This document shows positions 10,401 to 62,682 of a stretch of DNA of 64,000 nt, piece by piece. This stretch comes from Moniliella sp. 'wahieum'. Its lineage: Eukaryota. The translations under genes were made by a program, and so were the position numbers. How positions within the stretch are numbered: position 1 is the stretch's first letter; the number at the start of each line of letters is the position of its first letter. Under the pieces are notes generated by a model. That model was given only the letters and a program-made list of their open reading frames with translations. It was not told the origin of the DNA and ran no database searches. Location: assembly GCA_003971905.1 (NCBI GenBank), contig RSEE01000005.1:992001-1056000 (forward strand). The letters are read 5' to 3'.

Positions 10401-12285
10401 CAGCTCGTATCCAATGTGGCCGAACTATTGGCCGCCGATACTGAGACGCGTCGGCGGCTCTCGTTGTTGTTCGTGAAGCGGAGCTAGTCTACGGAAACTG
10501 GCCCAGATGCCCGCGGAAGAAGGAGGCATATGGGACACGGAGCTCCGCTCGGTTGACAAGGCCCTCTTCTCGGTTCGTCAGAAGATGCATCAGGCTAATG
10601 CCAACTTAGTGGCCCATACACCCCGGTTCCAACGTGCCATGGCGCGATGGCAAAAGTCTTTCACCGCTGCTGGTCTTCCCAGCCCATGCGCTCGTCCCGC
10701 GCATCCGCCGGAAAAGCTTATGCCTTGGGGGAGACAGACAACTGTCTTTTTCCGCCAGCCGTTTTGGCGCGAGCCTTTCTCGCGGTACTGGTCCTGCCTG
10801 CACCACATCTTCCGCATCCACAAGCGCATCGAGACCAACCAGCGCAAGATGAGCCGCCAAGGGCATCTTATGGTTGACACCCACAATGGGGCTGCGACTG
10901 ATGCAAATCCTACCCCTTCTCTGAGTATTGCTGATGGGCTGGCCAGCTTGATCTCTGTCGATCCGACTGCGGGGGAGTGGGGACGATCTGTTTGGCATCA
11001 GAAGCAGCATCAATCCCAGGGGACGGGGCAACAGAACCCGTGCCAAATAAATCTGCAGAGGTGGAAGGGGACTTGATGCCTCTGCCTCTGCCTCTGCCTC
11101 CACCCCTGCCTCCACCCAATTTGGTTGAAAATGGCGATAGCAACACGAACGAAGATTGGTCCAAACTCTTGCATCTCGATGGTTTGGGAACCGACACACT
11201 TAACGCACTTTCTTTGGGGACCCCACCTCAACTTCGGCTCAGGCGTCCCCGCGTCAATTACTTCTTCTCCCTAGTCGCTTCCTTCGTCGCCATGCTCAGT
11301 GGATCAATTGTCGCGCCGCTTGAGGCCGAGCTGCAGGACTTGTCTTACCTTCAGGACATCTGCACACCTCTCCCATCGGATCACACCAACAGTTCGAAAA
11401 ACCGCCTACATCCCGAGTCGGCAAGTACTGCGGCGGGGTCCAACATTTTTGAGAAGCTTCTTCCACTGCCCACGTCAACAAAAGAAAAAAGTCAAGATGG
11501 AGGTGTCTGCCCTGGTCAAGCGAAGGAAGCATCTGGATAGGCAGGTGCGCTTACTGAGGAACGCTTATGGCCGAAAGCGGACCTACCCGGCCTATGGTCC
11601 AACAGGTACAAATATCGATGTGGTAATGGCCGGGAGTAAGGATGACCACCCTGCTCATGGCGCTGAGGAGAGTACTGAACACCAGGCCCAAGGCAAATCA
11701 GCTGGTGGTGCACCTAACGTTAACGTGGGCCCCGGTGATGTTAACGTCGGTGATGCCAGTGAGCATGGGGAGGTTCATGATGATGAAGATCATGATGATG
11801 GTGGTGACGACGATGATGAAAATGTCGTTGACGATGGCGGAGAGGATGCTGCGGATCCTTGATGATGACGAGAAGGAGGAAGAAGAGGAAGAGGAGGGGA
11901 AGAGAGGAGGAAGAGGAGGAAGAGGAGGAAGAGGAGGAAGAGGAGGAAGAGGAACAAACTTCTCCGGGTACAGGGTCATCAGACGATCATGAAGGCCTGC
12001 TATCGGATCCAAGTCATGTTGGGTGTAATTCGACTGCACGTATACCTGCGCGAGGCGTTGTTCGGGACGGATGGGGGGGCACAAGTTCCTTCGGTGGTGG
12101 GGTCGGACGAGCAGATGATGCACATCTTGCCTAGCCTGACTTCGCTCGACATGTCTAGCGCGCTGACGATGCTCTTCCCAAGCTACAGCTGTAATATAGT
12201 ATCGCCCCTTTTTCTGTTGTGCATATGTACAAAGAAGTATGGATCTCAGATCTCAGATCTCATTGCAAATTGCACCCCCGTCTAG
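7476..12285 (+). CDS. C2H2 zinc-finger transcription factor with fungal-specific TF middle region, Q/P-rich and acidic tracts
   Basis: Two fingers 'FQCDVCNAVF..LRRHQRIHTNERPFGCQHCSQRF..DLLQRHVARYH'. Downstream 'FSVHMPFIH' and 'WHLWLEREETLRTLWAAYTVD' resemble Fungal_trans regions. Many frameshifts make both ends approximate. Confidence 0.75.
7822..7860 (+). repeat. (CGCAAC)n hexanucleotide microsatellite inside the TF gene
   Basis: About six tandem CGCAAC units, followed by CCCAG(C/T) units. Confidence 0.9.
11873..11955 (+). repeat. (GAGGAGGAA)n/GAR repeat encoding poly-Glu
   Basis: Tandem GAGGAGGAA units are directly visible. Confidence 0.85.
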
Positions 12286-12605
12286 CGGTAATCGATTGAT
12301 GGTTAAGATGTAACATCCAGGGGTTCTTTCCCAGATGTACTACAGGCGGATGAGCGAGACCTGAGGCCTGATGCATGCGATGTGTAATACTTCTTCCTGC
12401 GCCCCTTGAACCTGCGATGATGTCATGATGATGGTGACGCCCGCAGCCGTGTTTGGTAATTGACGCTTCGCGGCTGCAGCGTCTGTGCGCAGCTGAAATT
12501 CTGAAAGCCGGAGTACTCAACGCTTAGCGCTTATCAGCGCCGGTGTCAGTCAGACTCACATCGGTGGCGGCCCCCCCGCAACGCACCGCCACCACCTCTC
12601 CGTCC

Positions 12606-15435
12606 ATGCCCTTCCACTTTACCGTCCGCCCGTGCGGGGCTCTGGCCAGCCTCGTCAAGACCCTTACCCCTTCCGGCCACATTGAAACCCCATCCAAGTG
12701 TTCGAGCTGCCGCCGCTGCCCGCCCTGCCGTACCCCCTGCGTCGTCCGAGCCGGAGCGGTGGCAGCAACTTCAGCAGGCCCATCAGGCTTGGCGCCAGCT
12801 CATCTTGGACAAGTACCCCTTTGCTGGGGTGTCGTATGGGGTGGGACCAATTGTGTCCCGCCTCAGCAACAAGCCGCTGGTCGCTTTCGACCCCGACAGC
12901 ATCACCATCCGCTGGCGTTCTAAGAGTGCGCTCGACGGCCCCTGGATAGATGAGCTGAGTATCCTGAACATCTCCGCTTGCGCCAGTTTGAAGGCTCTCA
13001 AGAAAAAGTTGAAGAGATCAGCTATGGAGGCGTGTGTGTGGTGAGTAAGGACCCTCTCTTGCCCAAGTTTGATCTCAAGCGGCCTGTTACCCCCCAGCCT
13101 GTCCAACCTGACCATCGAGGCAACCATGAGGACATCCGACCGCAAGACGGTAGTGCGCAGTTTGCCACCGCTGTCGGTTTGCGTGTGCGCGACAAAGATG
13201 TCCTTTGCCTCCGCCTCAACCTTACCCACATTCTATGCAACTTAAACCATATCGCACCCACTACTGACGTCCAGCTGTTGTGCCGCAAGCGTGTCCGCCT
13301 CTGGTTCCATCACCTCTTCCCTCGCATGGACACCAACACCCATTAATCTCCTGGTCGCAACCATTTGGTCAGAAGCAGCCATTTCGAGTTGCTTTGGTTT
13401 TTTGTCCGGGAACGGACCGGCCCCGCCAGTCTTCCGCGGCCTCCCCGCCGGTACCGAAGCCGAGGTATGTTGCTCCTTCCAAACCTGGGCGGCTCAGCCG
13501 CGTCTACAGTATGGATTCACGTATTGACTTCTCAGAAGCAGGATCCCTGAATCCTCTAGCCAGGTTCAGCCAAGCTCACATCGTGCCAGCGTCAAGGTAG
13601 CGGACAAACGCACCGTGCCCGTGCAGCAGCCTCCAACCCTTAGTAGTCCTGTGGTTTCTGTACCCCCTACGGTACACGAGGGGAGCGTCGCGCAACCCGA
13701 TCTGGCCGCCTTGATAACCTCACTTCGGGACTTGGTGTCTGAAGAGCATCGCAAGACTCGATCGCAGATCACCATAATGCAAGACATGGTTGGGCCGTTG
13801 CTGGAACGTATGGATCAGACGGACAAACTGGCTACCCAGCTCGATCTGCTCACGACGGAAGTGAAAGCTGTGCGTGCAACAGTTGATTCGGTATACAGTC
13901 ATCTTCGTCGCACAGGGATCGAGCATCCTCAAATCTTGTCAAGTCTTGCCCCCACGAAGAGCCAGGTGCCAGCCTCACAAACGAAATCACCCGCTTCATT
14001 TGGCCGCGGATGGTACCAGTCAGAATTACCAGCCCCTGCTGAACTACCTGAGTGCACTCTGCCACATCTGTCGCTTCCAACTTCATCGATGGATGAGATG
14101 AAGTTACCGCAACCCAGCTCCGTGCTGAGTATGCAAGGAAGCCCTGCTCCCTCCATCGATGCTGAGTCGAGTAGCCTGCGGCGGACACTTCCTGAGCAGA
14201 CGGGGCACATCCAAGCTGGCACACATACCGAGAGAGATGCGCTTTGCTTTCTTGTCTAGCCCCCACTTGGTTTCATCTCTCACGCAATCACCGCCACGCG
14301 CTTTGAACGAGGGGGTCGAGGCTTTGGATTTGGCCCAAGTCCTACATTTCCTAGACGGAGCTGTTCGCCCCATTTCTCGGACTCGCAGCCCTGCACAGGA
14401 AGATATGTGTTCAGCTCCTCGGGCTACAGAAACTGCCCAGGAAGTTGTCACTGCCCCTACTCAGGACAACGTCACAACCCCTGCCCAGAACATCACTACA
14501 ACCCCTGCCCAGAACATCACTACAGCACCTGCCCAGAACATCACTACAGCACCTGCCCAGAAAGTCGCCACAACCCCTGACGTTGTATCAAGCTCTACTC
14601 TAGAGCACCCACATTTCCCTGGCTTTAATTCTGAGTGTGAACGCGAGCGCAGCACCACGCCGCTTGCGTTCACTCTCGAGCCTGAGCGTGACCCGAGCGG
14701 GACGTCGGTGCTTTCTGAGCCCAAGCAGGAGCGATGCCCAACGCCATTGACGCCTCCAATGGCAGCATCAGTCACGTCGCTTCTGGATACTGAACAAGTT
14801 CTTAGTTCGGAGACAGTTCCTACCGCTGAGGCCACCCTTTCGGCCGATTCCAACTTTGAGCTTACCCACCCTGCGCTGTCCACCTCGGCTTCGACAACAT
14901 CTCTGTTGGATACGGAGCACGTTCGTGATCCGTCGAACACACTGTTGATGGAAGGACCCCGTCGAATGATGATGAGCTAGGCGGTAGCTCACTTACCGTT
15001 CCCTCCCGTGTCCTTGCGCATGTGGCCCCGTCTGTTGTCTCGAGCCAGGATTTGGAAGAGACGGTGGGGCAGCTTGTCTCAACCAGCTTGTATGACTCTC
15101 ACCCATCGACGGTAACATTGGACATGTCGGGATTGTCATCAACGGTGCAGTTGGGTCAATTTACTCCGGACATGCAGGCCACTACCGAGTCGTATGTGTA
15201 CCCCGACTCGGATGTCTTTTTCCGCTCCGATGGGGAAGGAGATGAGAACGAAACCGATTATGAATTGGTTAGTCGCCCGTCTTCGGTGGCCAGCTCATTT
15301 GCGAGTGCGGGTAGGCATGATTACTCTTCCCTCTTGTTCCTTTTTGACGGTTTGCTCCTCTTTTCCCATCCGCGATTACGCTGGCTTTTGGTTCTATTCC
15401 CATCAGGGATTCCGTTGTTTTGGGGCTCTGTATAA
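12606..15435 (+). CDS. Orphan protein: N-terminal globular region with a degenerate HNH-like segment, a coiled coil and a long S/T/P-rich tail
   Basis: Consecutive overlapping + strand ORFs (12682-13044, 12978-13346, 13291-13527, 13615-14259, 14159-14980, 15022-15435) with protein-like composition. Coiled-coil segment 'LLERMDQTDKLATQLDLLTTEVKAV'. Confidence 0.5.
14479..14561 (+). repeat. 24-bp coding tandem repeat (PAQNITT[T/A])
   Basis: CCTGCCCAGAACATCACTACA(A/G)C(C/A) three times plus a partial fourth copy. Confidence 0.85.
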
Positions 15436-22964: not shown

Positions 22965-23058
22965 TCTCCCCTCTGGGAGTCGAACCCAGGACATTCAGAG
23001 CGGATGATTCCACTTGACCAATTACAATCTGACGCTCTTCCAACTGAGCTAAGGAGAG
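22965..23058 (-). tRNA. tRNA-Tyr(GUA) with a 21-nt canonical intron
   Basis: Acceptor CTCTCCT/AGGGGAG with C1:G72 and A73, D arm GCTC/GAGC, anticodon stem TCAGA/TCTGA, loop TT-GTA-A plus intron, T loop TTCGACT, followed by a T7 terminator. Confidence 0.93.
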
Positions 23059-31038: not shown

Positions 31039-34000
31039 CGTATCGCCAATGGTGGTCGAACTCGGCGACGCTAACGGCCTTGGACCTGGGCGAGGACCAG
31101 GTGTAGCTTAGTAATGAGTGACATTTCATTCTTTCACCTTCTCTTCTCGGTCACGTTACGTCAGCAAGAAATCACCAGATTGCAGGTTTTTAAATGTTCT
31201 GAACTTAACCTGTTGAACATTCAGTGTTCAGTTGAACATTGAAGTTAATGTCGTGACGCGTGACGCGTAACGCGTGCGCGTGACACGCGATAAGTGATAG
31301 GATAGCAGGCCAAGCCAGCCAAGCCACTTTTGCGGGCTGTCCCGCCGCCCCTCGTCCCTCTCTCGCATATGCATGTCCTCTCCCTTTTACCGCCATCCCC
31401 CTTTCCTGCTCTCCATTTAGTACTTGAATCAATACTTGCTGGATCGTGTGTTTGCAGGTCGTGACTCTCTGTGTCTTTTCGCTCTTCTACAGATCGACCG
31501 TTTTCTCGTGTTCATTCAGTAGCATGTTGAACAACAACCGAATGATATTAAGTCTCCGTCGTACAGACTACACATCCACATTCACAACGAGCCGACTGTA
31601 GCGGACGACGATGGGACGAGACATGGGAGGAAGGTGATGAGTACTGACTATATCGAGTGATGGGACCTGGAGCAATCGGAGGATCAGGAATGAAGGTGGA
31701 CTGTTGGGACCCGTGGTCCCGTACTTAGGCCAAGGCGCCTCATCACCCTTCACCCCTGATTTGTCCTCCGAAGCCTCCACGTGTATACTCAGGCTTGTCT
31801 GAACCCCTGTCTCTAGGTGTGGCACAAGGCTTAGACCTCAACCACCACCATCGCGATTGCATTGCTCTACATTTCCAGAGGTTCTTCACCCAATCCCTTG
31901 GGTTCCTCCGGTCTTACATGGACTGCACGTTACACGGGACTCGTGAACACAGGAGAGGCGATAGCTGCGTACCGGGGAGGGTGGTGCACGAGAGGACTGC
32001 GACGCCTTTGGAACGCCGGGAGAAGGAGCTGCTTCAGTTGCTGTACCAATTAAAGCAGAATGCGACAAGAACGCCAAGTGCCAGTGATGCACCCAAGAAC
32101 CCTTCTTCCCTTTGGTTCTGACGACGCGAGGGTACTATGCCACCAAGACGGCGAGAGCAAGGTGCTTGGGAACTGGAAGGAAGTGACTAGGATTGAGATT
32201 GTTCATCAGTCACCGTTCGGATGTTTACCACGTTCATCCGTATCCACACGCGCTACGGCGGGCATGGAACGGATGGCGGGCATCACTGAAGGTCCTGATC
32301 TGTGGTGGCGATTCTCCTGATTCCCTAAATGGGTTTTTGGCGCCCATCAACATGCTGCTATTGACTTTTTTGTGAGAGGCGAAACGTTTTGGAGAGAGCG
32401 ATTTCTGTTCTTTGTTGGTACGTACCAAAAATGCGATTTTATTGCAGCCCATATGGATGCACAGCTGCAACCTATTGCAACACCTTCAACACACACCTTC
32501 GCGCGGTATATACGCGCCTCCATCTGAATAAAAAAGCCATGGCGTCCGCCATGACGTGCCACGGCCCAAAACGTGTCCAACACTGTGCGGGCACGCGTTG
32601 AGAAGCACAAGCAGGGGCGTACTGGACTACCGAGAGCGGTGTGGCCACCATGTGGTTGCAATCAGAACATGTGGAGAGGGCGCGATGGAGATGCGACGCC
32701 AGGGACACTTTAAGACACACCTCGTTGGCATATGAGAAGTACGTATAAGTTTCCGGCGGGAGCTCCAACAGTCCTGTCTGACAATGTCTCGGATAGTCGA
32801 TGCAGAAGTACCAGGTAGTACAGGGTGGTACTGGGGTAGTACCCTGGGGGCGATCATCGATCGGTCAGCTTCCGCATTGGATTAAGGATTTGTCACCGGT
32901 AGCCGACGTTAAACGTTTTTAACGGAAAAGCCCGACAATCGATACAGTTTGATAAGACCCAAAAGACAAGGAGCATTTATATACTTGGTCGGGCACGAAG
33001 AGTATACACGTAGCGACGAACCATTCTCCCATTTACCAGATTGCAAGGTCCCCGATGGTCGAACGGGCGCCTTCCCCGGAACAACAATGGCTAGAAACTC
33101 GGAGGTCCGAGTCCTGAAGAGTTCTGTGGGAGATCCGAAGGCCTGAGGCTTAAAGCTTAAAGCTTCAAGTTTTAAAGCTTGCTCCTGCGCTTAAAGCTTA
33201 CATTGGCTTAACTGAGTTCCAGTTTTTACTACTTCAGAGCGTTAATACGTTGAACTTACGTTGAACTGATTCAAACCCCTTTCCCACGCAGGCCGGAGGA
33301 CTGCCCCTGGCTGCTCATGATTTGGCTGTCTTGGCCTTTGGCACGGGGGCCCAGCGGACACAGCTATCTCCGTGGTGTGGAGGGAGAGTGGCAAGTCTGC
33401 GTCGTGTCAGGGTCGTGTCTGGGAGATGTAAGCGCTAAGCGTAAGCAGCTAAGCGCTAAGAGAAGTCACCGGTCACCGGTCACCGGTCAGGGCATAGCAC
33501 ACTGCTGGGGGGCTACTAGCTCTACTACTAATGCCCACACTGCGATCGAGACAGATGCTCGCTAGCGCGTTCACATGCAATCGATGCAGCAACTGGCAGC
33601 ACAGCAGGGGCACACATGCATTGTGCCCCCCTAGCCACATGAGCACATGATGCAGCGCGAACACCTGTGGAGAACGTCAATACTGGCAAACCATGCTCAT
33701 CCTACTCGCATCTCTCAGCATCCCGAGCATGTGCCACCTCTGTTCGCGTCCCCGGCACGAGGGGAGCACCTGTGAGCGCTCTGAGATCTGACGCCCCCGG
33801 GCCCAGCTCAGCGTGTTGAAGCTAGCGCATTGAAGCAAGTTCAACTAAACGTTCAGCCTGACTGGCCAATGGGTCTGAGAGGGCGAGGAGAGAATGTAGT
33901 CATTTTGGCAGAGGCACGAGCGTGAGAGGCTCGCTGACTTGCTGTGCTACTCTCGACAATCGACAAAAAATCGATCACATGACATGACGAGCGGCTAGCG

Positions 34001-34537
34001 GTTAGCGATTAGATCACCGCGGTTCTACTAATGGCTGCCGGTTATCGAGGTTATCGATTATCGATTCGGGCAGACTGGGGGTGTATGGTCGCAGTCGGGG
34101 GAGATGAAGGGTGAGCTACGTATGGGGTCTCTGTGGAGGAGGGTGCCATATGTACATACACTGGGCGCCACGCGTCCAACACCTATGTCCAAAACGTCTA
34201 ATTTACTCAACGCCGTCGTCCATTCAGCGCTCAGCTTCGCCAACGAGGGCCTAAGCTCTAAGGCTGCGCCTCTCGGGTGCAGAGCGTGCTGAAACGGGTG
34301 GCGGATGACTGCTATCAAGAGCGGGTCCACCTCCTTTAGTCTGTGCCCCACTGCCAGTCCCATGTCCAATCGCATTCAGTCAGCGTACTCGGCTGCTGTT
34401 GTGTGGAAACTGCATAGTGGTGGCGATCATAGTCGACCAAGGCGCCGCCCACTATTGCTCGCGCTTCTTGTCCTCTCCCTCACCACGCCTCCCCCCCCCC
34501 CCCCCCCCCTGCTGCTGCTGTCAATCCGTCCTCTGAT

Positions 34538-39560: not shown

Positions 39561-40183
39561 ACATACCCCTCACTTGGTTTTCATAACCATAACATCTTTC
39601 CCTGTTTCCTTATTGGCCATACGCCCCATCCTTGCACACAAGTGCACTTTCCTTTTGCCTCTTCACTGCTGATATATCTGTTTACCTGTTTACTTGCCTT
39701 CCCTCTCAATCGCTCGACATGCGCGGCGAGAGAAAACTAAAGGAAGGTGGGTGGCCCGGCTACGTATGATGCGCGTTGAACGTTGATGATCATTATCGAG
39801 ATGAAGAGATGTGATTCAGACGAGAGACGAAGCCAAGTTGGATGAAATGTATTTGCTTCGCTTTCCCATTATTGCGTGTGCGGCTTGGTTAGCCTGGGAT
39901 TACACCATCGACAGATTCCCCACCCAGGTCGTTGGGCAAGGTGGACGGTGAGGGGAAGTGAAGCTTTTTTGTGTCTACGACGGGAACATAGACAATGCCA
40001 AAATTGACATGTGACATGTGACCTGCGTTGTGCATTGACCCAGACCCCGACTCTTGCACCGATCCATTCCCCTGCCTGTTTTTTCTTTTTTTGGCCAGCC
40101 TAGCTGATTGCACTGATTGCAGCATTCGATAATTAGCCCCCGACCCAACGGTGCCCGCCACCACCACTGACTCCCCATTTACA

Positions 40184-43948: not shown

Positions 43949-46900
43949 ATCGAGTTGCTTTTCACGGATATCGACAAGGCCATTGTGGTAGTTGTATCAG
44001 TCTCGGTACAGATGGTGATGGGAGTAGCAGTAGGGCTCGGGCGCGGGGAGATGTTGTCGCAGAAGAAAAAAAGAGATGCCGCGGATGTGGATCGAGGGAT
44101 AATGTGGGAATGTACGGATGTGTGTGGGTGGCTATATATAGGTACATTGAGTTTGGGGACCCCAAACGAGGGTGGGCTCTTGTGTAAGATTGCCGCTCCC
44201 AGTGATACGGAGCTGCTGCTACGGATGCAATGGGGGGGAGTTTAATCGCTTTCGGCACCTGCCAATGTGTGGGTAAACGTGGTAACGTTATAAACAACTA
44301 GTAATAGTCTCGCCCACTGTAATTATATCCACACTGGCCCCGTGCACTCGGTGTGGGGCTCCGCTTTCCCCCGCCCTCTCATTAATTCATTATTTCTTGT
44401 AAAGCCGCCGTGGGCGGCAGCGGAGAGGGTGAAGCGGGAGACGTGCAGCTGTGACCGACATCGCCCACCTCTCCAACTAAGAACTCTTCGGACCCCATCA
44501 GGATACACACACACTACACCATCTTCTCGTGTCTCCAAAAATGTGCCTTCTCTCCCCCCCCTCCCCCATCACACTGAGATAGAACCCGATCCACAATTCT
44601 GGCCAGCGCAGTGCTGCAATATGAATACAGAATTGAATGCAGTATCGGAAAGAGCACACAACACCCTCCTCTGATTTTTCCTCTCCGTCCCCGCTTATTG
44701 GTATAAGTGACCCTCTCCACCTCCCCATACCAGACTCGTACTTACTACAGCAATTTTAAGAGGGAGTACTGTGAGTGTGAGAATGCGTGACTCTCAGAAC
44801 CAATCTGGAAGTGTGGCGTAATGCGTGCGCGTCCCTTTGCAGGACACACAGTGTATGACAAAAATGCGCTGAATAAAGACAACAGCCGCAGCGGCTACCG
44901 TCACAGTTGACTCCGTTTACCGGCCGTCTTAAAAATATAGGATGACAATCGATGACACCATATCCCATTTTGCTTGTTACATGTGGCTTCAATGACACTC
45001 TTTGCCGAACACCACACATATTCACTGTGTATTGTCAATGTGGGGCTCACTCTTGTCGATCTGTCCACAATGTATCCGATTTTTACCCTACTACTCTGCG
45101 CCCCAACCTGCGCCCCCTTATAACTCGGTCAAACCCCGTCGGATGCACTTCCTGTCGGCATCCTACGTTCTCCACACACGTCGGAGCGCTATTCTCTTAC
45201 TCCACTCAAGCCTCAGGCCCCACTTCCCCGTTGTCAGTGCATAAATCCGTCATGTGCATCAATATGCTGTGAGATCCCCGAAAAAGGGCTTGCTGCGAAG
45301 AGTTTACTGTACCGTCGTCGTGCACTCCAGGGGCCGGTTGGACTATTCGCGTCGCAACCATTCACGCCACACTGCCGAGCATCCTCTGACGGAAGCAACG
45401 AAAAAGTGGCCAGTACGACAACCGTAGAGCCCGTTGATGACCACTCGGGTCCAGACCCGTCTCTCGGTCTTCAGTGACACGCGTCAGGCACTCATTGCAT
45501 CGGGCCGCGCGCGTTCCGGAACTTTTCCACAGTAGCCTTCCGACTTTTTCGGAACCACCCACTGGTCTATATCCCTCCTTAGCTCTCTCTTCAATACGAT
45601 CTCTCAATGACCTATCGCCAAAAACATCGCTAATAAATGCCTTCCACGGCTCCGGCCACAGTGGCCTCTGTTAGATCCCCACTGTGACCAGATGTGTGCG
45701 TGGCAATATCATGCGCTCTCTCTTCGTATATATGTTATTGTGTTCGGTGTGACATGTGATCATATAGTCTTGCTCGCGTCCGTCGTGGTCTTGTTGATAG
45801 AATAAGGCCTCTCCTCTTTCACAGAGCGATGGGAACCCGGTTTCATATCATCGATATCATCATGCTGGTGCAGCTTATGCGCTCCTGTGATAGTATAGGT
45901 GGTTTTGTCCTTCCTTCGGGCCTATCAAGACCACAGTGGTTAGGCACATCAGGCGGCATCAGGCCTCAGTTTTGCCATTCTTGGTCAGCGTTGTGCGGCT
46001 GCTGGTGACTACCCCAGCTTGTGACTCAAGCTAACTAATATACGAATAAGTAGTTTTGTACTTGTGTATGCTTGGCATTTTGTAGCGAGACACAAGCATA
46101 TGCTTAGCGCGCTTAACCCGGTGCTTATATATATCAATCGTGACCAATATTGATGTGACTGTGACCCTATGAAGACGCGATATAGCCAATTGTGGAAGAG
46201 CAGGGCGAAAGGAGATGGCGAGGGGGAGAGAGCTGGAGGAGATATATATCGATGTGACATCGTGCGTGAGTGAGATCTCGAACAATTAAGATGTGTTTTG
46301 GTGATACAAATTGATGAGGCCGTGGGGCTGGGCAGTGGGTTACCATTTTGCCCGAAGCATTTTCTGGTACGTCTAGGCGCCCGCGAAAACCAAGGCCCGA
46401 AGCCAACAGCCCCCTTTTCACTTGCGCTCACCAACGCCCGCAGCTCGGGATGGTCCGTCCGCTGGGCCGCATGGCAACCCGACCCAAGCATGTGCTTGTC
46501 ACATGTGATATTGCCACAACCCTAATCATATATCACCGCCATCGCCATGCGTCCACCGGCATTGGGCCGAATGCACTCTGATGCATGATGTGGCGAATCC
46601 ATAATGCATGATGCATCGACTATTATGTGGACAAGGCCTGTGGCGGAGATTGGGACATGGGACACCACTCTCCCGGCGGGCACACCTTGAAGCTTGAGCA
46701 CACCCCCTGACTTGGGACTACTAGATCCAGATGCCAGATCCCAGACCATATCTCAGTCCGAGGGGTACGTGCTGTGCCGACGGTGGGGGCAGTGAGCTGA
46801 TGGTCCCTTGTTCGGGGGGCATACATTGGGCCCACTGGGGCCGGGGTTTGTGTGTGTTGGTGTGTCTTAAGTCCTGCGGCACACAGCCCACTGTGCTTCC

Positions 46901-48592: not shown

Positions 48593-51500
48593 TCCCTTTC
48601 GGGTGTCCCTTGCTCCTGGTCGCCCGTCCCTCCCCTGTTCCGCCCTCGTGTTTCGCCTTCCACATCGTTGATCCATGATGGACCTTTGGTCTTCACGCCC
48701 CCTTCGTCACGTCCCTTCGTTTTCTCCGTCGGGCAGGCACCTGCTCCTCCTACCTGACCTCCCCTCCCATGTATTACCACCATGTTCCACCGTTTACCAT
48801 TCCCTCCCCTTTGCTTTGGTCACTTGATCCCGTCCCTCTTCCCGCTCGAACCGATCGCCCCTGCTCCTCTGAACATCCCATGTCAAGATATGTCCTATCT
48901 TACCTGGCGCACGCGGTGCTATGATCCTTTTTGTGCTGTAGCGCGATGTATGACCAGCTGGCCTGGCCACAACTTGCCTTGCACCCAGCACCACACGCGC
49001 ACTTATTTTTACTTCCCATCGACTTGCGCTACCATGCTCTCTTTATCTTTCTCGGCAAGCTACAGTGGTGGCGGCACCTTGATGGTCCGTCAGACCGACT
49101 GCCCAAGAAAAGGATGGGAAGAACCATATATGGAGGACAAGGCTCCAAGGGGCAATACAGGTAGATGGAGGCGAAGAAGCTTGGACTTGGGCCGTAAGCC
49201 ATGGGATGTGAGGCAATTTCCCTAAGAAGGACGAAAGAGCAAGAGACAAGTACGTTGTGGGTTTTTGGGGATGAGTAGGGGCAACCAGAATCGTCCCACG
49301 CCGTGGCGTGGTAAGGTACGAATGTGCTCACTGTGGAAGGTGGGCAGGGTGGTCTGCTCCACGCCTACCAACGGCCGACAGAGCCAGCAGAGCTGGAACG
49401 AGATGCCAAGGGGGGTACGTCGCCGGTGGCACGTCACGTCTTGGTCTGGGCCGGGGGTGGAGGGGAGGGCACGATGGGAGGGGGAGGGGGGAGGAAGGAT
49501 TCGGGCCAGAGATGCAATCGTGTGCCAGGAAGGAGCATGGTGACGGAGGTGGAGGGGAGAAGGGGGGAAGGCGTGGACAGAAAAGTGGTGGGGGCAGCAC
49601 AGTTGGCTTTTTGTGGTACAGCAGAGGAAAATGAAGACTTCGATCTCTTGGTGGCTGGATTTGGTGGGCCCGTGGGGCGGCAATTAAAGTGTGAGGCTAC
49701 GGACTTTAGTAGCTATAGAACCGTCCCAAGAACCTTGTTTCTCTTTACTCTCTTCAAGGTTCAAGCTTCAGAAGGCCCTAATGAGCCTCTACTAGATACT
49801 AATCTCACTTCAAGCTTGAACTTCAAGCTTCAGCATCACCAAGTCAATTGACTAGGGTCTAGTGACTAGCTACTAGCTACCGGCAGGCACCATTACTCTT
49901 CCCTTCAATGTCTTCACTGGCCTCAGGCCTCACTTTATCGCAACATCAAATTCATTATCAGAAGCGTACCAGCAAGGATCATGTGGCCCGAGCGGGACGA
50001 AGCATAATGCGTAAGTATAGGATACGGAAGAGGCGGCTTCATGCAGGTCCTCAGTGCACTAAAGGGCCTCGGCCTCACATGCCTCACAGAACCAAAAATA
50101 TTCGCTCTCTTTTTATTCTTGCAAACAACAGGAGATATGCAACAGGAGACGGTACAACAGGAGGATGGGGTTCACTTGTTTTGAAATGGCAAACTAGAAT
50201 GTGGCCCTGAGGCTCAGGCCTGAGGCTCAGGTTGGAAGAACCAAAACACGTCGAATACGAGAGGTGGGTGTGGGGGCGCCCTCCTGTTGTTGCGTCGGTA
50301 GGGATTATCGAGTATCGATTACCGAGATACAGAGTACTGGTTACTAGTTACTAGTTACTAGTTACTGAGTACAGTTCTGGGAATCTCAGACCGAAGGTAT
50401 TTTTTAGCTTTAATTTAAAGTACAGGACCCTAGCGCACCCTAGGCTTTCCCCCTGTCCATTGATTAATGATTGGTATGTATTGAACAGCTGTCGAGCTCA
50501 TGTCGAAAGGAATCCAGTAGAATATCGAGGGCTGTCACGCGTCACGCTGTTATGCGGCACATAATAGTGCGTAATGCGTAATGCATAATGGCAGGAACGG
50601 TCGGATGGATATGATCGATGATCGATGAGCTGGCGCAGGCTGATGCGCCGATGGCGTCTACTGTGGGGGCGAGAAGGTTTCCCCAGGTTTCCCCTGTCCC
50701 CTACTCAAGTTTAAGCTTTCTTGCATTTAAGCTTTCTTGCAAAGGATGTTGGACGCGGATTCGAGGACCCTCTTTCCCGCCTATTTTTGGCTTTGAGAAT
50801 GCATGAATGTGGCATTCACGTGTGACGCCCTGTATATCTAAAGCTTTTTTTGTCTACTATATGTCCGAACACCTACCTGCTCTAGTATGTAATCGTCGTC
50901 GAATGTCGACCTCACGACCCACGACAGCCCTCGACGCGACGCACGACCTCCCGCGACCTATGATAATCGATAAAACGATGATCGATGACCACAGCCGCCT
51001 TGGAGCTTGGACTGAGGGCCCCATGCCTCAGACCGTCTCAGGGCCTCAACAATGATTAATGACCTCAGTATATCTTCCTCAATTGCCACCAGCTATCCTC
51101 TCTCGCCACGCGCCACCCGTCTTCCACCCGTGTTTGAGTTCAACGTTCAACGCTTAACGTTTTCACTCTGAATCCGTCCATATATATGGGATGGTGGGTT
51201 GGGTCCAACCCGGTCTGTGCAATCAGTGTATCAGCTCATTGAGCTCAGCCCAGATTTCCCCACGTACAGAGACTAGCAGTAGAGCACTGGCCCAATGATT
51301 AATGAAGCTTGAAGCTCAATGCACGAAGAGGCTCAACGGTCTCTGAATTGTAACCATGGCGCCCCCCCTTCCCCTTGCACCTGCAGAGTCCCCGGTTTCA
51401 TCGAAGATTGATCAGATGATCATACCATTTGTGTGAGTGTATAGTGGTGTGAGCGCATGTGAGCGCGAGCCTCATTGCCCACGGGCTGATGGGTGTTGAA

Positions 51501-51922
51501 CGTTGATTAATGATTGTTGATTAATGATTAATGATTGGACGAGCCATCAATCGAACATGGTGTAGGCTTTTTGCTGATGCACTGATGCGCGGAAGCGATG
51601 ACGCCCCATATCAAATTGAGTATTGTTCGAGAAGAGGCACATAGCTTCGTTGGTGTGGTTTCTGGTTGTCTGTACTCTCGCTGTAGGTATTCTTCGGCTC
51701 TATACAATTAGCTTCGAGCTTTATCGATTACGGATTATCGATTAGCACGCTACATCAGTCCACCATCGGCATCATCTATACCAATCAAAAAGCGGGATGG
51801 AACAGAGATGATGATAATTGATCATCCGATCAATTCGGGCCAGATCGATGGGGGTGGTAGACACACATCACCCATAGGGATGTGAGAGGGTACAGCCCGG
51901 GGGAAATAGTGAGGAAAAGAAG

Positions 51923-51994
51923 AGACTCGAATGGGATTCGAACCCATGTCATCGCCTATGGGCCAGGGATGCGTTACCACTACGCTATCGAGCC
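51923..51994 (-). tRNA. tRNA-like gene with a non-canonical anticodon arm (nominal CCC, identity undetermined)
   Basis: GGCTCGA/TCGAGTC acceptor with U73, D arm GCGT-AGTGGTA-ACGC, T arm ATGGG-TTCGAAT-CCCAT. The anticodon arm TCCCT-GGCCCAT-AGGCG has a C:C mismatch and G33. Confidence 0.7.
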
Positions 51995-52320
51995 GGGATA
52001 AGAGCAGCTGCAGGATCACAGTCTAACAAGGGATAAGAAAACAACCAAAAAGGGGTCATAATTGTGGGACAGGCGGGGGAGCGGGGGGGCGGGAGGGGTT
52101 CCGTAAAGGCGGGGAACCGACCAGCCATCGAGAAAAAGAGCAGCCAAGTAGGTTGCCATATGCGAGGTATCTAGGTGAAAAGAACGGTAGGAGAAAAAGC
52201 TCATCGTGCTTTCGTCCCCATTAGAAGGAGGAAAAGGAGAAGGAGGGGCGTCCGTGGTGCAGCCGAAGTGGGAACAAGAGGGGGAGGATGAAAATATCCT
52301 GGTGTGGGGTTCTAGTGCAC

Positions 52321-53585: not shown

Positions 53586-55019
53586 GAGCCAGGCGTTGGA
53601 AAATATGGGTTGGGGAGAGAAGGAAATACAGAAAAACACCCGCAATACGCACAATAATAGTACTGGCGTAGCGGCGCACAGACAGCCGGAGAGAAGGGTG
53701 GAAGAAGGTGGAAGAACGACTTGACAGAGAGAACCTCGTTTGAGGTAGGCGATTTAAGGAAGGCAAAGTGGGTGTAGGAGAGACAAGGACGGGAAGAAAG
53801 GTGGTGTGGAAGAAGACGATAGGAGGATGGAAGAGGTGTGTGTATGAGGAAGGAAAGCAGATCAGATGATACCAGATGGGCAGCCTCGTCGCGGGAGATA
53901 TGAGGACAGCACACAGGCAGTAGGATGGCATAATTATTCGCTATCGCAAGCGATTTCGATATCGGGATGGGATGACCGCGACGATCGCGATCGATGATGG
54001 ACGAGCAATACATCGGTAGAAACCATACTTGGGGCTGGCTGACTTGGACCATGCATGTCGTGTCACTGTGACATGTGCCCTTTTGCGGCAGGCCGAGCAC
54101 GAACTCACAATGAGATCTGAGACTGACTGGGGTGGCAATTGGGTGCACGACAGGAGTGTCCTGCCTGTCAGAGCTGTCAGATCTCAGATCTAAGATGCCG
54201 GAGAGAAGCCCCGCTGAAGCACCCCACCCCACCAGAAAAGTTGGGGGTGGCAGCCCGGGCAGCACGACAGTGGCACACATGCATGGGGGAGGAAGGGTGC
54301 GTGCGCCAGAGCCCTGCACCCGCCTGCGCCCCCCAGGCGGTAAGATTGGCAGCAACCGGCAACCCGCCACTCTCACGTCCTACCAAGAGACGTACTACTG
54401 TATTAGAAGCGTACTTGCACGTACTGCACTGCGCCAGGGTATAGTGCTTGGAGAGCGCAAGGCTGCTTGAAGCTTAGCGTTCGGAAGGTGCCCTCTATTG
54501 CCAGGAACTGACTGAGCGAGGATGGTGAGTAAAGCTAGTAAGTACAGAAGAGCACTGAGGTACTGAGTTGAGTTCATTATCATTGAGTACGTTAAAGATG
54601 TGCTGAACGTTGAAAATACAAGCAGATACGGATGATTCGATGATGTGCTCTGGCGCACACATGGGTCTCTACAGCTTTACCTGCTCTATGTGGTGCTCGC
54701 TTGCTGCCATTTCTCCCACTCACCACTATTCAGCTGAGTCCTCCGCGTACTCAGCATTCGATATCTCTCACCGGCCTCCAGATTGGCCTGGAGGCCAAAG
54801 CATCGAACAGCTTTATATTGGTTCACATGCACATGTCACGCACGTGTCATCCGTCACGTCAGTCACATGACATGCTGCCACATTATGCCTTACGTGATGC
54901 AGCCATCCGCGTCTTCTTGAAACGTTGAACATCGAGCTTTGAAACCATCGGATGTGGGTAGTTGGGACGCGTCGCGACCTCCTCCAACCCACCAACCTTC
55001 GGTTGCCTCCAAGGCTGCC

Positions 55020-56677: not shown

Positions 56678-57978
56678 TCAAGTATCGTGTTGTATCAGTT
56701 ACCATCCCCTTTGTCAATTCTAAAGCATAGGACAACCATCTATGCCCACGGTAGTGCGGCTAAGGAAGACAAGTAAGCCTAGACAGAAAGGTCGGTAGCC
56801 GAGAAGAAGGCCAGCCAAGCGTGGTAGGGTGGTCGCGAAAGGATGCATTTCACAAGTGTAGGGCGTTTTGCGTACTCCGACGGCCACAGGTACTGAGGAA
56901 AATGTGCTCTAGCTGGTCGCTCACGAAGAGCGGCACAGCGAGCGACGGCATCCAAGACGGTCAAAGCGATTGTATAACCCACGTGCCGAAGGCCGAGGGG
57001 GTACGAGCACAGCATACCTGCCAGTCGGACAAGCCGACCCACAGCCAGCGCGCGTCGAGTACCCCCACCAGTTCAGACAATGCTTACTCTGTGGACGTTG
57101 CAACAAGCAAAGACTCTCCTCCTCAACGCAGGTAGAAGTGCCGCGGAGGGGGCTAGTGTGTCCGAATTGATGGAAGAAAGCGATCCTTGTCTGCGCCGGC
57201 TATCGACGTTGAATTTTTTTTTGGCGGACCACTGGACGCATGGGCGTGTTGCGCCTCCGCTGGGCACAATTCCGCCGCCGGAATGCAGGAAAGGGCTTGG
57301 GCCTGCGCGAAAGAAAATGCAAAGAAACGCGAACCACGTAATGCGCCTTCTCAAACGTTGGAATTCTTGCTGCCAGCCACGCCATGCCAGGCCAGGCACC
57401 ATCCAGCGATGCCGAAGGATGCAACGGATGCCCCAGGAATTCATGCGTCCGCTCCCGCGGCTCCTGCGTCGCATGCATCACCTCGGGCGCCTGGCCACTG
57501 TTTACTGTCACCGGCCACCCCAATCGAATCATCGCCCACAGGGCCAGAGCGCTTGAGTGCATGCGCATGGAGCCCTTGCAGCATCACGGCTTGGTCACAG
57601 CCAACTTCACACCAGCCGGCGATGCAAGCGGATGGCCCGACAAACAACCTCCCCCCTCCGGGACGGGGGCAGTGTGCGCGTGCCAGCTCGCGCGCGCTGG
57701 CTCGGCGGCACTGCTGGCGCGTAGCCTGCGCGCGCAGGCGCTGCAGGGCGCGGTTGTCGCGCATCCTCCGTCTAGCTCAGCGGCCGGGCTACACTGCCCC
57801 TGCGCTGCCCCCCAGCAAGCCGGGTTGTTTTGGTCTTCTGCGCGTCGGGTGTCGGCAGTGGCGATCGTCCGCAGCCACTCAGCCGGCCAGGTCACCTCCG
57901 TGGCGTTCAGCGTCCGTGTTTGTTCACCCACCCCCACCACCTCCGTTTCTCTTCCCCACCCTCCCCCGTATCTCCACC

Positions 57979-59065
57979 ATGGCGCGCGACCGCTTGGCCG
58001 CCATGCGCGCCCAGCAGCAAGTCCACGGGACACTGGGTACGACGCCCCCTCTGCCGGTGGCTATGCTGCTCCCAACTACGACTCGCCCGCCGCTGCTCCT
58101 ATGCCCCGACGCAGGCCTACGGTGCTCCGCAAGAGTACGAGATGCGTCCTGTCGATGGTGCTGGTGGCGCTGCGCCCAATGCCGCCGTGTCGTTCCTCAA
58201 TGAGATCACCGAGCTCCAGACTACCCTCTCTGCCATTGACGGCAACATTGCCAAGATTGCCGATGCCCACTCGCGCAGCCTCAATGGCGCGGACGAGGCT
58301 GCTTCGGCGGCCGCCGAAGCCGAGTTGGTCACGCTCACTTCGCAAACCCGCGGTCTGACCAATGCGACAAAGACGCGCATTCAAGTGCTCGCCACTGGCC
58401 AACAAGCTCCCTGCTGGCAAGGATAAGAACATGCAAGAGTCGCAGTTGAAAGCGATCAAGAGCCGGTTTAAGGATGCCATCCGTCGGTACCAGCAGTTGG
58501 AGAACGACTACCAGCGCAAATACCGTGCGCGCGCCGAGCGGCAATTCAAGATTGTCAACCCTTCCGCCACCCAGCAGGAGATTGACGCTGCGATGGACGA
58601 GCCCAACTCGCAGCTGTTTGCTCAAGCGCTCCTCTCTTCCAACCGACATGGCCAGGCTACTTCGACGCTGCGCGAGGTGCAGGACCGTCATGCGGAGATT
58701 AAGAAGATTGAGCAAACCATGGCTGAACTTGCCAGCTCTTCAACGATGTCGACATTCTTCTCACTGAGCAAGACGAACAGATTGACGTGGTTGCTGGCCA
58801 CGGTCAAGACGTGGAACGGCACATGAACCAGGGCTTGGATTCCACCAAAAAGGCTGTCGTGTCTGCCCGCAAGGCCCGCAAAAAGAGGATCATTTGCTTC
58901 TGGATCGTACGTTCGTGTTGTCTACCTCTCCAAGAGAATGGCTATTGACCTTTTTGCATTTGCTTGCGTCCTGTCCTCTCAGCTTGTCATCCTGGTGGTC
59001 ATTATTCTCGCTGTTGTCTTGGTGCGGGTGTGGGGTCGGGCAACTGCGGCAGCCACCAAAACTAA
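57979..59065 (+). CDS. SSO1: Plasma-membrane syntaxin Sso1/2
   Basis: 'MARDRLAAMRAQQQ', Habc region 'YRARAERQFKIVNPSATQQEID', SNARE 'LREVQDRHAEIKKIEQTMAELA..EQDEQID..AVVSARKARKKR'. The TM segment is split by an intron at 58907-58982. Confidence 0.92.
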
Positions 59066-59934
59066 TCCCCCTTCCCTCCCCCTATTCCCCCTTTCCACCT
59101 CGAAGTGGGGACTAGGTCGTCTCGTGCCCTTGTTCTGTGCTGTTTCTTTTCTTCTGCACTCGTTTTCTATTGCGGGCCCTGTCCTTCCTCTCGCTTCCAC
59201 TCCTCTAGCAGAGGTCCGCGCGCGCCCTCTTGCTCTGCCAATCGTTTTTTTCGTGGGGGGCACACCAACGGGTATACCCGAGGCCCGATACCTGGCTTGC
59301 CACTTATTTCTATCCAAGAACGCTCCTGTTGTCCCATGTGGGTGTATGTTGCCATAGAATCGTTTTTTTCTCTTTCTTTTTCTGTTTTTGCCCCCGACAG
59401 TTGCTGATCCGTGTACAACGCCCCCCAGCACAATCCGCCTTTCAGGTTGCTGTGAGGCTGAGATATATCCCCCCGCCCCTCTACTACGACGGATGTTCTT
59501 CTCCTCCCACTCCTTCCTCCCACTTCCTTCTTAATGCGGTTCTTGGTACTATTCGAAGTCACGGCTGGGTCAGCGTAGCTTATCTGCCTGCCCCTTTCCC
59601 TTCCTTCCTGCCGAAGCATCTTAGATAGCACGTGGATGGGCCTGGATCGTGGACTGGTGTCCCGTCTCCGGCTCCCAGATGCCAGCTTATGTTTCTTCTC
59701 CGCCTGCGGAAGAGGGCGAATAAAGACGCATGGTAGGCCCGCCATGTACCGCAGCAGCTGTGTGACATGTGACGCCGTGCATTCGTTCTTCTATCCACTA
59801 GCTGCAAAGCGTACCACACACGCGAGGCCGCAGCCGGCACGCAGAGTGGGACTGAGACGGATCTGCTACCTTGTTGGAAAGTAAGGTTCAATGCGATGGC
59901 ATGGCTATTCACCCTGTTTCTCCTGCTCAACAAA

Positions 59935-60030
59935 GCGGCTGTAGTTTAAAGGTAGAATTTTAGCCTTCCACGTTGGTTCTCAACCGGCAGGGGGCAGCTG
60001 AAGGTTCGGGTTCGATTCCCGGCGGCCGCA
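59935..60030 (+). tRNA. tRNA-Gly(UCC) with a 25-nt canonical intron (59971-59995)
   Basis: Acceptor GCGGCTG/CGGCCGC with A73, anticodon stem TTAGC/GCTGA, loop CT-TCC-A plus intron plus A, T loop TTCGATT, downstream T tracts. Confidence 0.92.
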
Positions 60031-60496
60031 CCTACTATTTTGTCTTTTTCTTTCGTCAGGCACACAAATTACTTTTCTTTCCCCATCACCCTCTCCACCT
60101 GCCAGTAGTGCACCCAGTCTACATCCCTTCGGTCCGCAGTCGTTCGCAGCGAAGCAGGGAATTCAGTGGTTGGGGGGACGCCGCGCGTTGACGCCATGCA
60201 TCGAAGAGGGGATGGAAATTGCTCGAGTAGGGGGGGCACAAGTAAGGAAGTGGACACTCTGGCATATGCGTGACAGCAAGGGAAACACGATTGAAGGGAG
60301 GACATAAAAACCGGGGATTGGACGGGTGCAGCAAATTGTTCAGCGTAGACTGGGCGATTCGAACAAGTGATATAAGATAGAGGGAACGGAAGATCATGAC
60401 CGTAAGGCTCGTCGGGCGACTGGGCGAACGATGGGAACAGTGGAGGTGATGGCGGTGGGGGTGGTGGCGGACCAACTGCGCCGAGAGTGGGTGCTA

Positions 60497-61675
60497 CTAT
60501 TGTCGGTGTTGGGTTTGTTGAGAGCAGACTCCCTTGGAGCACAGGGTGGCCACCACAGCCACTGCAATAAGAATAGCGGCAACAAGCAGAATACTGAGGC
60601 GCGAGTCAATTGCCACGACCAACAGAGCGTGCCCACTCACGGGGAAAGGAAGGCAGGAGGAAGCAGGGGAGAGGCTTAGGAGAAAAAGACTTACATCAAA
60701 CAGATCCAGCGCTTTTTGCGCGCTTGACGAGCGGCGAAAGCAGCTTTGCTGCTGCGCCGCTGTCCCGTCTCGATATTCTGGTAGTTTGTTTGAGCGCTGG
60801 AGACGGGTTGTGTCGATCGAGGTGTCCCCTTCCGGCGGAAGCGCATCCACATCCGCACCTAGATGCGCCATCTCCGCTACTGTCTCCTCCATTTTGCGCA
60901 TCTCGGTTAGCAAGGCGTACAGTTCACGTTCGGCAGCGTGGTCCGCCGGGTGGCTAGTGACAGGTGGCTGGGAGGGGGACCCATGCCCCCATAACCCCCC
61001 TCCATCGCCTTGGTCAGCTCGGCCTCGGTAGCACCCGGATGGAGGATCTGATACTGTTGCTCGGCCTGTGCCCGCATCGTACCGCGGTATGCAGTTGCCA
61101 CGTCGGTATAGCGCTGAACGAGCACCTTAAATTGAGTCGTGAGCATGGCGAGTCGTTTGGCTTGGGCGGAAGCTACTGGCGTGAGTGGGGCACGGGCAAG
61201 TTGAGTAGCGATTTGCTGGATTCGGCTCTTGATTTGGGCGGCCAGGCCACGGGTTTGGGTCTGGGCTAGGTCCATTTGGTCCCATGGTCCTGCTGTGTTC
61301 CGACTTTGACCCAGGGCCTTCTCGAAGGCAGCGATGGCATGTTCCAACTCGGTGACAGGGCCTGCACCTCGTCCACCTCATCCCACAAGGTCCGTGGCGC
61401 AGCCGATGGTTGTGAAAAGCTGGTCAACTCCATCGTACTGTCCCCCTTTCCTTCGGGTCCACCGAGGGAAATGCGAGATGCAAACTTATCGTCCTCGTCG
61501 TCGAGGGGGGGATAGGAGGTGTTGTACGCGTGGTGCGTGGGACTGCTGTCGTCGTAGCCATAGCCGTAGCCGCGGTAGCCATCCGAGTCTGGCTCGGCGT
61601 GGGACAGCTCGGGGAAGGAGACCGCGGGCGTGGGGGGACGATGCCCGTGGGAAGGACGGGGCGGACGGGCTGCAT
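60497..61675 (-). CDS. Divergent second Sso-type syntaxin
   Basis: 'QTRGLAAQIKSRIQ..QFKVLVQRY..MRAQAEQQYQILHPGATEAEL' parallels the neighbouring Sso1. Also 'EMRKMEETVAEMA' and a C-terminal TM 'LSILLVAAILIAVAVVATL' after an intron. Confidence 0.75.
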
Positions 61676-62682
61676 GGCTGCCGAGAGGATGGGGGGGACC
61701 CAGGAGCGGAAGGAGGGCCTGCGTGGGCGTGGGCTGTCGTCTGGGCTGTGTAAGCGACGTGCCAGTCGGGTTGCTGTGTAGGGCAGGTGGGCGGGTGGGG
61801 CGCGAGGGTGCGCTGCGGGCGGCGAGCGGCACCGAGCGCGCACAGCGGCAGGGGGGCGGTGTGCAGGCCGAACGCGAACAGGTAGTGTGCTGGCTGCAAC
61901 ACAAAAGAACAGCATCACGGATCATGTTAATCATGCGCCACGCTCCACGCCTCGAGCACCAGCAGGCACCAGCGGGTGGACACGTGGGCACGTGAGCGTG
62001 GGGTGGATCCAGCTGCCAGCTTCCAGCTTCCAGGTTGCAGCGCGCTTACCTTTCAAAACGGGGGCATGGGGCACTGTAGGCGTTGGCGTGCGCCCAGGCG
62101 GCAGGGCCGATGGGGAACAACGCATGGGGCCGCCCACTGGCCGCACGTGACATGTGACATGGGCAACACCCGGTGGTGCGTGTGGGATCTGCGGTGGGGC
62201 AGCCGGCTGCTGGCTGCATCGGGGGCGGCAGGCAGCATGCAGCATTCGCACTGCCCCCATGCCGCATGCGAGCCAGGCAGCCCGGAGGTGCCTTGTGCTG
62301 CGTCGGCCCATCGTGCGTCTGGCCCTGGCGTGCTGCACGTTGCACCTACAATGCAGGCCCAGACGCCCCACCATGCACCACGGCCCACTCACCGGTGACG
62401 TCACCTGCTGGGCCCCCGGCGCCGCTGGGGCAGGCGGGGTGTAGCAACGCTTCTCAGCGCGCACTTGCGGAGGTTCCGACAGAGACGCCATTGCATGACC
62501 ACCCTAGGCGGTGATCGTTCGGTGATCCGGCCAAAGAATGTGCAACGAGAATGCACAATCGCCCACATGCTGCTTGGCTACCCGCCGCTTGCTGACTAGG
62601 ACCCGCAGCTCCTGACTGGCACGACAGCTGGCGACCTGTCTTGCTCCCACCACCCCCGCTGTCTCTCTTTGCGCCATTCCCC

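Follow-up and report, generated by a model that had tools for sequence, protein, structure and literature searches.

Flank-templated palindromic units at TNA sites in non-coding DNA of Moniliella sp. 'wahieum' as probable excision footprints of a putative cut-and-paste element

In this study, a stretch of 64,000 nucleotides of the genome of Moniliella sp. 'wahieum' (contig RSEE01000005.1 of assembly GCA_003971905.1, positions 992,001 to 1,056,000; G000:C5:992001-1056000 in our numbering, hereafter the window) was analyzed for short palindromic units recurring with a period of 7 bp in non-coding DNA. The window is part of an assembly of 69.5 Mb in 223 contigs. Genes at the locus include a zinc-finger gene, a gene for a NOG2-like GTPase with a start codon near 40184, and a gene for a KilA-N and ankyrin protein at 55126-57500, which we take to be Swi4/Mbp1-like. 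Palindromic units form, for example, an array with the core CGCG at 31254..31284, verified by a sequence check, a cluster of scars and arrays at 33151..34233 with the cores AGCT, GCGC, CCGG (three times), GATC, ACGT, and TCGA, and a hot spot at 49761..51744. The densest cluster was found in the long non-coding stretch preceding the KilA-N/ankyrin gene.

An original prediction for this DNA had described arrays in which many different hexamer palindromes, all beginning with A and ending with T, are repeated every 7 bp. All 11 of the 11 cited examples were confirmed at their positions, including an AACGTT pair (51142 and 51156) with a spacing of 14 and a one-mismatch unit in between. Compared with 100 local Markov shuffles, both the A..T palindromes (263 versus a mean of 186 and a maximum of 232) and their pairs at lag 7 (17 versus a mean of 0.45 and a maximum of 3) were in excess. 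This lag-7 excess was limited to A..T palindromes, since the classes starting with C, G, or T gave 1, 0, and 2 pairs, respectively, as in shuffled DNA. The palindrome arrays are real, and their core sequence is not fixed: 15 of the 16 possible palindromic cores are used at TNA-N4-TNA sites of the window, and all 16 occur on the larger scale of contigs C5 (that of the window) and C27.

A palindromic core was present in 71 of the 192 TNA-N4-TNA sites of the window, while the control centres ANT, CNG, and GNC gave 10/140, 17/328, and 26/366, respectively. In 57 of the 71 units, the two triplets had identical middle bases N. Furthermore, among units with a single core, a flanking dinucleotide was identical to the corresponding core half in 34 of 47 in the window, in 242 of 338 in 524 kb of C5, and in 259 of 333 in 440 kb of C27. 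A strict unit was defined as the same triplet occurring twice around a palindromic core, one half of which equals a flank. Fifty strict units were counted in the window, compared with 0-1 in 20 Markov-3 simulations, and 328 and 399 in the stretches of C5 and C27, respectively. Thus, the period-7 arrays of the original prediction stood, but its framing as a hexamer palindrome plus one base, repeated n times, missed the underlying rule: the core is copied from the two adjoining bases, and the true register is NN-TNA-NN.

For a coding control, 29.5 kb of gene blocks were marked by hand. None of the 50 strict units lay within marked coding sequence, in line with the scarcity of arrays noted there by eye, and 48 were located outside the gene blocks; the remaining two (40005 and 40012) lie upstream of the NOG2-like start codon. 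Units were clustered (variance/mean 5.6 per 5 kb), with 21 of the 50 in the hot spot at 49761..51744, and six young insertions were nearly free of them, with 1 unit in 25 kb. Clustering and the near absence from young insertions are consistent with a process that has been active for a long time and either hops locally or prefers open chromatin.

Contig C27 carries a second, collinear copy of the region with a substitution divergence of 3.2% from C5, and the assembly therefore contains two haplotypes or subgenomes. An alignment of both over 408 kb contained 12,715 substitutions and 3,574 one-base indels (approximately one every 115 bp). Together with frameshifts in conserved and housekeeping genes, the frequent one-base indels point to an unpolished long-read assembly, so that claims on the level of genes need caution. 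Such noise could suggest that the units are an assembly or sequencing artefact, but this is extremely unlikely: 31 of the 50 strict units were identical on the separately assembled second contig (9 were diverged and 10 had a gap of at least 5 bases), the units avoid coding sequence and young insertions, and copied and mirrored flanking bases solely at TNA are not to be expected from sequencing error.

The comparison of the two haplotypes also revealed a sequence rule behind the units. Indels were regarded as clean if they had gap-free 14-bp flanks with at most 3 mismatches, by which 94 of 146 7-bp indels were kept. The lengths of clean indels peaked at 7 bp (5 bp, 37; 6 bp, 48; 7 bp, 94; 8 bp, 24; 9 bp, 29), and the longer allele was on C27 in 59 of the 94. 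With a site written as ab-TNA-cd and complements marked by a prime, the rule reads ab-TNA-cd to ab-TNA-[b'a'ab]-TNA-cd or ab-TNA-[cd d'c']-TNA-cd. It was exact in 56 of the 94 clean 7-bp indels, compared with 13 of 20,000 random insertions and 147 of 20,000 random deletions; 4 more fitted with one mismatch, 18 were duplications within one mismatch, and 16 were neither. While 24 of the 56 were also exact tandem duplications, the other 32 were not, which is different from slippage of a microsatellite, where each change is an exact copy of an adjacent unit. At 12522..12535, for example, a single scar with the core GCGC copied from the left flank is an exact rule fit without being an exact tandem duplication, and the second haplotype has the empty site. 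In the mixed array at 51294..51314, the single empty C27 site (14-bp indel) corresponds to two C5 cores, TTAA being derived from the left flank of this one site and AGCT from its right flank.

The centre was TNA in 44 of the 56 rule-fitting indels, and T or A was retained in 11 of the remaining 12. At the near-cognate centres (CGA, GTA, TAC, TGG, and others) the odd base was copied unchanged. This points to a preference for the target and speaks against a T templated by fold-back. Simple fold-back synthesis at TNA, one of the mechanisms offered in the original prediction, is therefore disfavored, and an odd-centred hairpin at N was ruled out, as N and the near-cognate bases are copied unchanged. 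A related alternative is template switching during replication or repair by snap-back at a T-N-A mini-hairpin, requiring neither nuclease specificity nor a transposon. T and A can indeed pair around N, and the inserted bases mirror the flank; yet the equally foldable centres ANT, CNG, and GNC are unused, and near-cognate bases would have to be templated. Complementarity of the flanks was not preferred: both flank pairs were complementary at 17 of 189 and 14 of 207 sites (26 and 29 degenerate-array sites dropped) against a background of 9-10%, or 9.4% for the former, so that no preference for self-complementary flanks was seen. As the mirror part is also always 2 nt and the products described below share one register, we regard template switching as improbable.

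Another explanation treats the units as a selected protein-binding or chromatin-shape signal, a "grammar" as the original prediction had proposed, or as ordinary microsatellites. Their non-coding position, their clustering in long intergenic regions such as that upstream of the KilA-N/ankyrin gene, and the 24 rule-fitting indels that are also exact tandem duplications would agree with this. A conserved cis-regulatory motif should diverge less than the flanking non-coding DNA. The mismatch rates were 0.043 and 0.036 within units versus 0.050 and 0.045 in the flanks, i.e., ratios of 0.86 and 0.80, although even neutral DNA should give approximately 0.5 here, given that a unit had to be intact on one of the two sides to be counted. 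In addition, 95 of 276 and 159 of 348 units (34-46%) were gapped between the haplotypes. The units are thus highly polymorphic and no better conserved than their flanks, and no sign of sequence constraint was found. With all 16 cores occurring and 32 of 56 events not being duplications, an origin by selection or as microsatellites is very unlikely.

Further product classes were counted with a model in which two 4-nt palindromic overhangs overlap by 4, 3, 2, 1, or 0 nt, giving +7, +8, +9, +10, or +11; the +8 class was first suggested by one example and counted afterwards. The TNA-centred counts in C5/C27 were 328/398 for +7, 44/52 for +8, 27/42 for +9, 5/0 for +10, and 0/0 for +11, whereas other complementary centres gave at most 13 (+7), 8 (+8), 8 (+9), and 1 (+10). 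The products from +7 to +10 share a single 7-bp register with the mirror part fixed at 2 nt. Between the haplotypes, a duplicated target with short inverted P copies at the junction, as in flank-hairpin footprints, was present as an exact fit in 56/94 7-bp, 5/24 8-bp, 7/29 9-bp, and 1/19 10-bp indels, and in 0/8 11-bp indels. With these 69 exact fits and the 12,715 substitutions, at least one scar event was fixed per approximately 185 substitutions. The fitting 9-bp indels consist of a full 7-bp duplication plus two mirror bases. Models with a 3-bp (TNA) or 5-bp duplication were ruled out, since the +9 class retains 7 bp on both sides; moreover, 3-bp duplications of TNA were not clearly enriched (11 of 109 versus 6 for ANT). 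Transib elements duplicate 5 bp of their target, different from the full 7-bp duplication retained in the +9 class. Among readable, fully non-complementary sites, a single flank had supplied the entire core in 118 of 161 (C5) and 133 of 176 (C27). N was C or G in 76-80% of the sites, and no other base preference was seen.

On this basis, the units are probably excision footprints, i.e., hairpin-type scars, of a putative cut-and-paste element with a 7-bp, TNA-centred target duplication. The element would insert at ab-T(C/G)A-cd with duplication of 7 bp, and upon excision both flanks would be sealed as perfect, even-centred hairpins. A host nuclease of the Artemis/Pso2 type may then open the hairpins 2 nt 3' of the tip, as suggested by the published behavior of these enzymes, which would leave the 4-nt palindromic overhangs cd-d'c' and b'a'-ab. 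During end joining the overhangs would overlap by 4, 3, 2, or 1 nt and one of them would replace the other, which corresponds to the observed rule with +7 as the most frequent product besides +8, +9, and +10. As every scar provides two new TNA targets, it would be extended by further hits and slippage; the homogeneous and the mixed period-7 arrays may be built in this way, the mixed ones being observed directly and slippage being presumed. Since +7 shifts the reading frame, scars would persist only outside coding sequence. The original prediction had proposed a shared generating mechanism and, among others, hairpin-resolution footprints of a TNA-targeting DNA transposon; this part of its interpretation is the best supported, and the interpretation as a whole was supported in part.

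Published systems provide precedents for the individual steps. The main product of Artemis is opening of the hairpin at +2 with 4-nt 3' overhangs (PMC2175297), and Pso2, by which Ac hairpins are repaired in yeast, likewise cuts 2 nt 3' of the apex (PMC3299998). Hairpins on the flanks are also formed by hAT, Transib, RAG, and the MULE Muta1 (PMC5499845). V(D)J coding joints formed by RAG and Artemis share the even-centred hairpin, the main opening position 2 nt 3' of the tip, the 4-nt palindromic 3' overhang, P nucleotides, and end joining (PMC2175297), and this geometry is also that of the +7 to +10 products. In contrast to coding joints, the units described here have a 7-bp duplicated, TNA-centred target at both ends, a far more uniform product, and a heritable, genome-wide distribution. 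Transib is reported to be absent from fungi (PMC5751038). Ac/Ds and Muta1 have in common with the units the target duplication, the flank hairpins, short palindromic insertions, and, in fungi, repair through Pso2 and end joining (PMC5873905, PMC5499845), while Muta1 excisions are mostly precise (PMC5499845). Ac duplicates 8 bp, so that the 7 bp deduced here is not canonical for hAT but fits hAT7 in length. Duplications of 7 bp occur in the basidiomycete DNA transposons hAT7 (Puccinia) and Kyakuja/KDZ (Laccaria), for which the accessible part of the source describes neither a TNA-centred preference nor footprints (PMC12730594). For Kyakuja the match is one of length only; its ends are CA..TG without terminal inverted repeats (TIRs). 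EnSpm/CACTA-Plavaka elements of fungi duplicate 2-3 bp (PMC12730594), in contrast to the 7 bp deduced here; Tnp2-like genes exist in this genome, and for ATENSPM3 a high excision rate with many footprints has been described (10.1101/447870).

Several observations weigh against excision footprints. For footprints, 0.6-0.9 scars per kb represent a very high density, and the polarity as insertion, probable as it appears, was read without an outgroup from the information in the inserted bases. The +11 product was absent from the counts in C5 and C27 as well as from the 11-bp haplotype indels. Plain 7-bp duplications without mirror bases were not enriched at TNA (28 and 44 versus 34 and 32 at ANT). 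Ac footprints are far more heterogeneous, with 28 types in 128 (PMC5873905). Palindromes of Ac and other hAT elements are odd, being centred on the complement of the base adjoining the element with one unpaired base (PMC5873905), whereas the cores found here are even and N was unchanged in most window units, which speaks against a hAT footprint. Finally, no element with a 7-bp TNA-centred duplication was found in the 964 kb of the C5 and C27 stretches (1.4% of the assembly). When these stretches were scanned for TNA-centred 7-bp repeats enclosing inverted ends, 7 weak matches were obtained, most of them within arrays, and the Tnp2 profile had no match there. None of the 39 large haplotype gaps inspected by eye carried an NN-TNA-NN duplication. 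Searches of this genome for MULE, Harbinger, hAT (2 profiles), and KDZ/CxC2 families were blank, with the positive control silent for 4 of 6: the hAT profiles PF05699 and PF14372 and the KDZ/CxC2 profiles PF18758 and PF18803 had no match in the genome and were also silent in the positive controls, and the MULE profile PF10551 had no match in this frameshift-rich assembly, with the control matching in 3 of 14 genomes. Likewise, a Pfam scan of 92 of the 107 open frames from haplotype-specific insertions detected one reverse transcriptase and one F-box, and no DDE transposase.

The large haplotype gaps include long terminal repeat (LTR) elements with 5-bp duplications, Helitron-like inserts, and one P-like element. 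This P-like TIR element (G000:C5:946143-949503, L021) is young, 3.36 kb long, has ends with 97-100% identity and copies on C19, C98, and C117, and its nearest Atlas clusters carry PF21787/PF21788. It was rejected as the source of the scars, as in the three copies with both ends the duplication is 8 bp long, with G as its first and C as its last base, instead of NN-TNA-NN. P elements are described as rare in fungi (PMC5751038). A 5.4-kb apparent inverted repeat (G000:C5:1120400-1125807) was also rejected; it looks like two opposed solo LTRs, and its best Tnp2 match (E 0.008 with approximately 150 queries) is at chance level.

With PF02992, two EnSpm/Tnp2-like genes with long open frames were detected at G000:C17:556000-558800 and G000:C34:513200-516700, both embedded in scarred host DNA. 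A further Tnp2 match on C62 is a frameshifted allele of the C17 gene; an allelic copy of the C34 gene was looked for and not found. No convincing inverted ends were present in the surrounding 13 kb and 12 kb, respectively, nor at the C62 allele, and a genome search with the nearest outside Tnp2 (P0262) returned only the genes already known. The C34 gene has acidic residues at both aligned aspartate positions, while the C17 gene has a His at the first. Both genes are possibly domesticated. They bear on an alternative in which the chemistry is unchanged but nothing stays inserted: a DDE enzyme that is host-encoded (domesticated) or works in a hit-and-run manner would make a 7-bp staggered intermediate, gap filling would leave a 3'-OH at the junction followed by immediate hairpinning, and one enzyme or element would write thousands of scars. 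The very high scar density without any element in 964 kb would be accounted for, and the two PF02992 genes, one with an allelic copy and the other with both acidic residues, would be candidates without matching inverted ends; yet no direct link connects these genes to the scars, and the His in the C17 gene also counts against this alternative. We consider this hit-and-run alternative rather unlikely, and excision footprints of an inserted element remain the preferred explanation.

The phylogenetic position and the range of the units were addressed with eIF5B. The protein of this genome has 74% identity to that of Tilletiaria anomala and 70-72% to those of Ustilaginales, Malassezia, and Tilletia, and in a one-gene tree it forms a long branch within Ustilaginomycotina, weakly grouped with Tilletiaria (support 0.84). 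A set of 80 eIF5B loci on metagenome contigs (925 kb; by best hit mostly from ascomycetes, and with no close relative included) contained 15 strict units, 9 of them in one locus (L135). Its stretch 1-6250, adjoining eIF5B on an ascomycete contig, was rejected as a scarred locus, as it is an AT-rich, degenerated repeat resembling the result of repeat-induced point mutation and the ANT control was equally high (43/234 versus 39/211). Outside this stretch, 6 strict units in 903 kb remained, approximately 100-fold below this genome, and three Malassezia-like loci (41 kb) had none.

The nearest published observation is that of 10-bp intergenic repeats in Ustilago maydis, which are small and numerous and were proposed as footprints (PMC4081816). 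They belong to the same smut lineage, and the TNA-core-TNA unit is also 10 bp long; the likeness is one of length and description only, whereas the core found here takes the form of each of the 16 palindromes, with the flank as its template. The flank-copy rule makes this old suggestion directly testable. In a literature search confined to open-access papers, neither this rule nor such a scar density was found described, nor was the combination of a 7-bp duplication, a TNA centre, and even hairpins that is predicted for the transposase. The feature is real and explained in outline by hairpin-type excision footprints that are unusual in their uniformity, density, and target. The genome would offer a large natural record of the opening and joining of hairpin ends in a fungus, in which the uniform products let the cut positions be read from sequence, and tandem arrays would be seeded and grown by a route other than slippage or selection. 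For annotation, the motifs should not be read as transcription-factor sites. As a more far-reaching and tentative proposal, the scars might be the work of a DDE enzyme not described so far, perhaps EnSpm-like or domesticated, that combines a stagger of 7 bp and a T(C/G)A target centre with even hairpins of the RAG type. Acting in a hit-and-run manner, it might have written tens of thousands of near-identical scars (44,000-63,000 if the sampled density holds across the 69.5 Mb). The enzyme would then rank among the main sources of length change in non-coding DNA and would represent a new way in which tandem repeats arise, one that possibly also applies to the 10-bp repeats of Ustilago maydis.

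Within the window, the hot spot at 49761..51744 contained six clean 7-bp indels and one 9-bp indel relative to the second haplotype, and in the cluster at 33151..34233 the second haplotype had a +9 product at 33864. The array of two TCA-GATC units at 12242..12262 has one unit more than the second haplotype (7-bp indel at 12242), while at 12362..12400 a scar with the core GGCC is accompanied by an empty TAA site near 12383 at which the second haplotype is scarred. Two features lie beyond the range of the original prediction: an empty site near 2144, scarred in the second haplotype, with a scar at 2214 (2140..2223), and three units with the cores TATA, CGCG, and AGCT at 7070..7295 upstream of the zinc-finger gene. 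A scar (ACGT) and an array (CATG twice) at 39777..40021 precede the NOG2-like GTPase gene, and seven palindromic-core units form a cluster at 45750..46697. A scar and an array with the core GATC are located at 54111..54193, and scattered units at 59763, 62148, and 62389 (59763..62398).

Other mobile sequences were also observed. An element of approximately 148 bp with TG..CA ends and 5-bp duplications occurs at 51881-52036 of the window, where the other haplotype lacks it, at G000:C5:903138-903284, and near C5:986726; it carries a tRNA-like sequence called as tRNA-Gly by ARAGORN and Rfam and resembles a very small LTR-type element that has captured a tRNA. A solo LTR at 31703-31918 (approximately 217 bp, 5-bp duplication) is absent from C27, and a full 5.56-kb copy of its family is located at G000:C5:1099616-1105175. 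Haplotype-specific insertions with Helitron-like ends and no target duplication were found at G000:C5:868678-872169, 892397-893696, and 1232600-1236366, one of them with a reverse transcriptase frame. Additionally, the window contains two neighboring, convergent syntaxin-like genes (58050-58850 and 60497-61700), two intron-sized Rfam tRNA matches (22965-23058 and 59935-60030), of which ARAGORN left the first unassigned and missed the second, and tandem repeats at 24817-24935 (39 bp, 3.1 copies) and 14454-14579 (24 bp, 4.4 copies).

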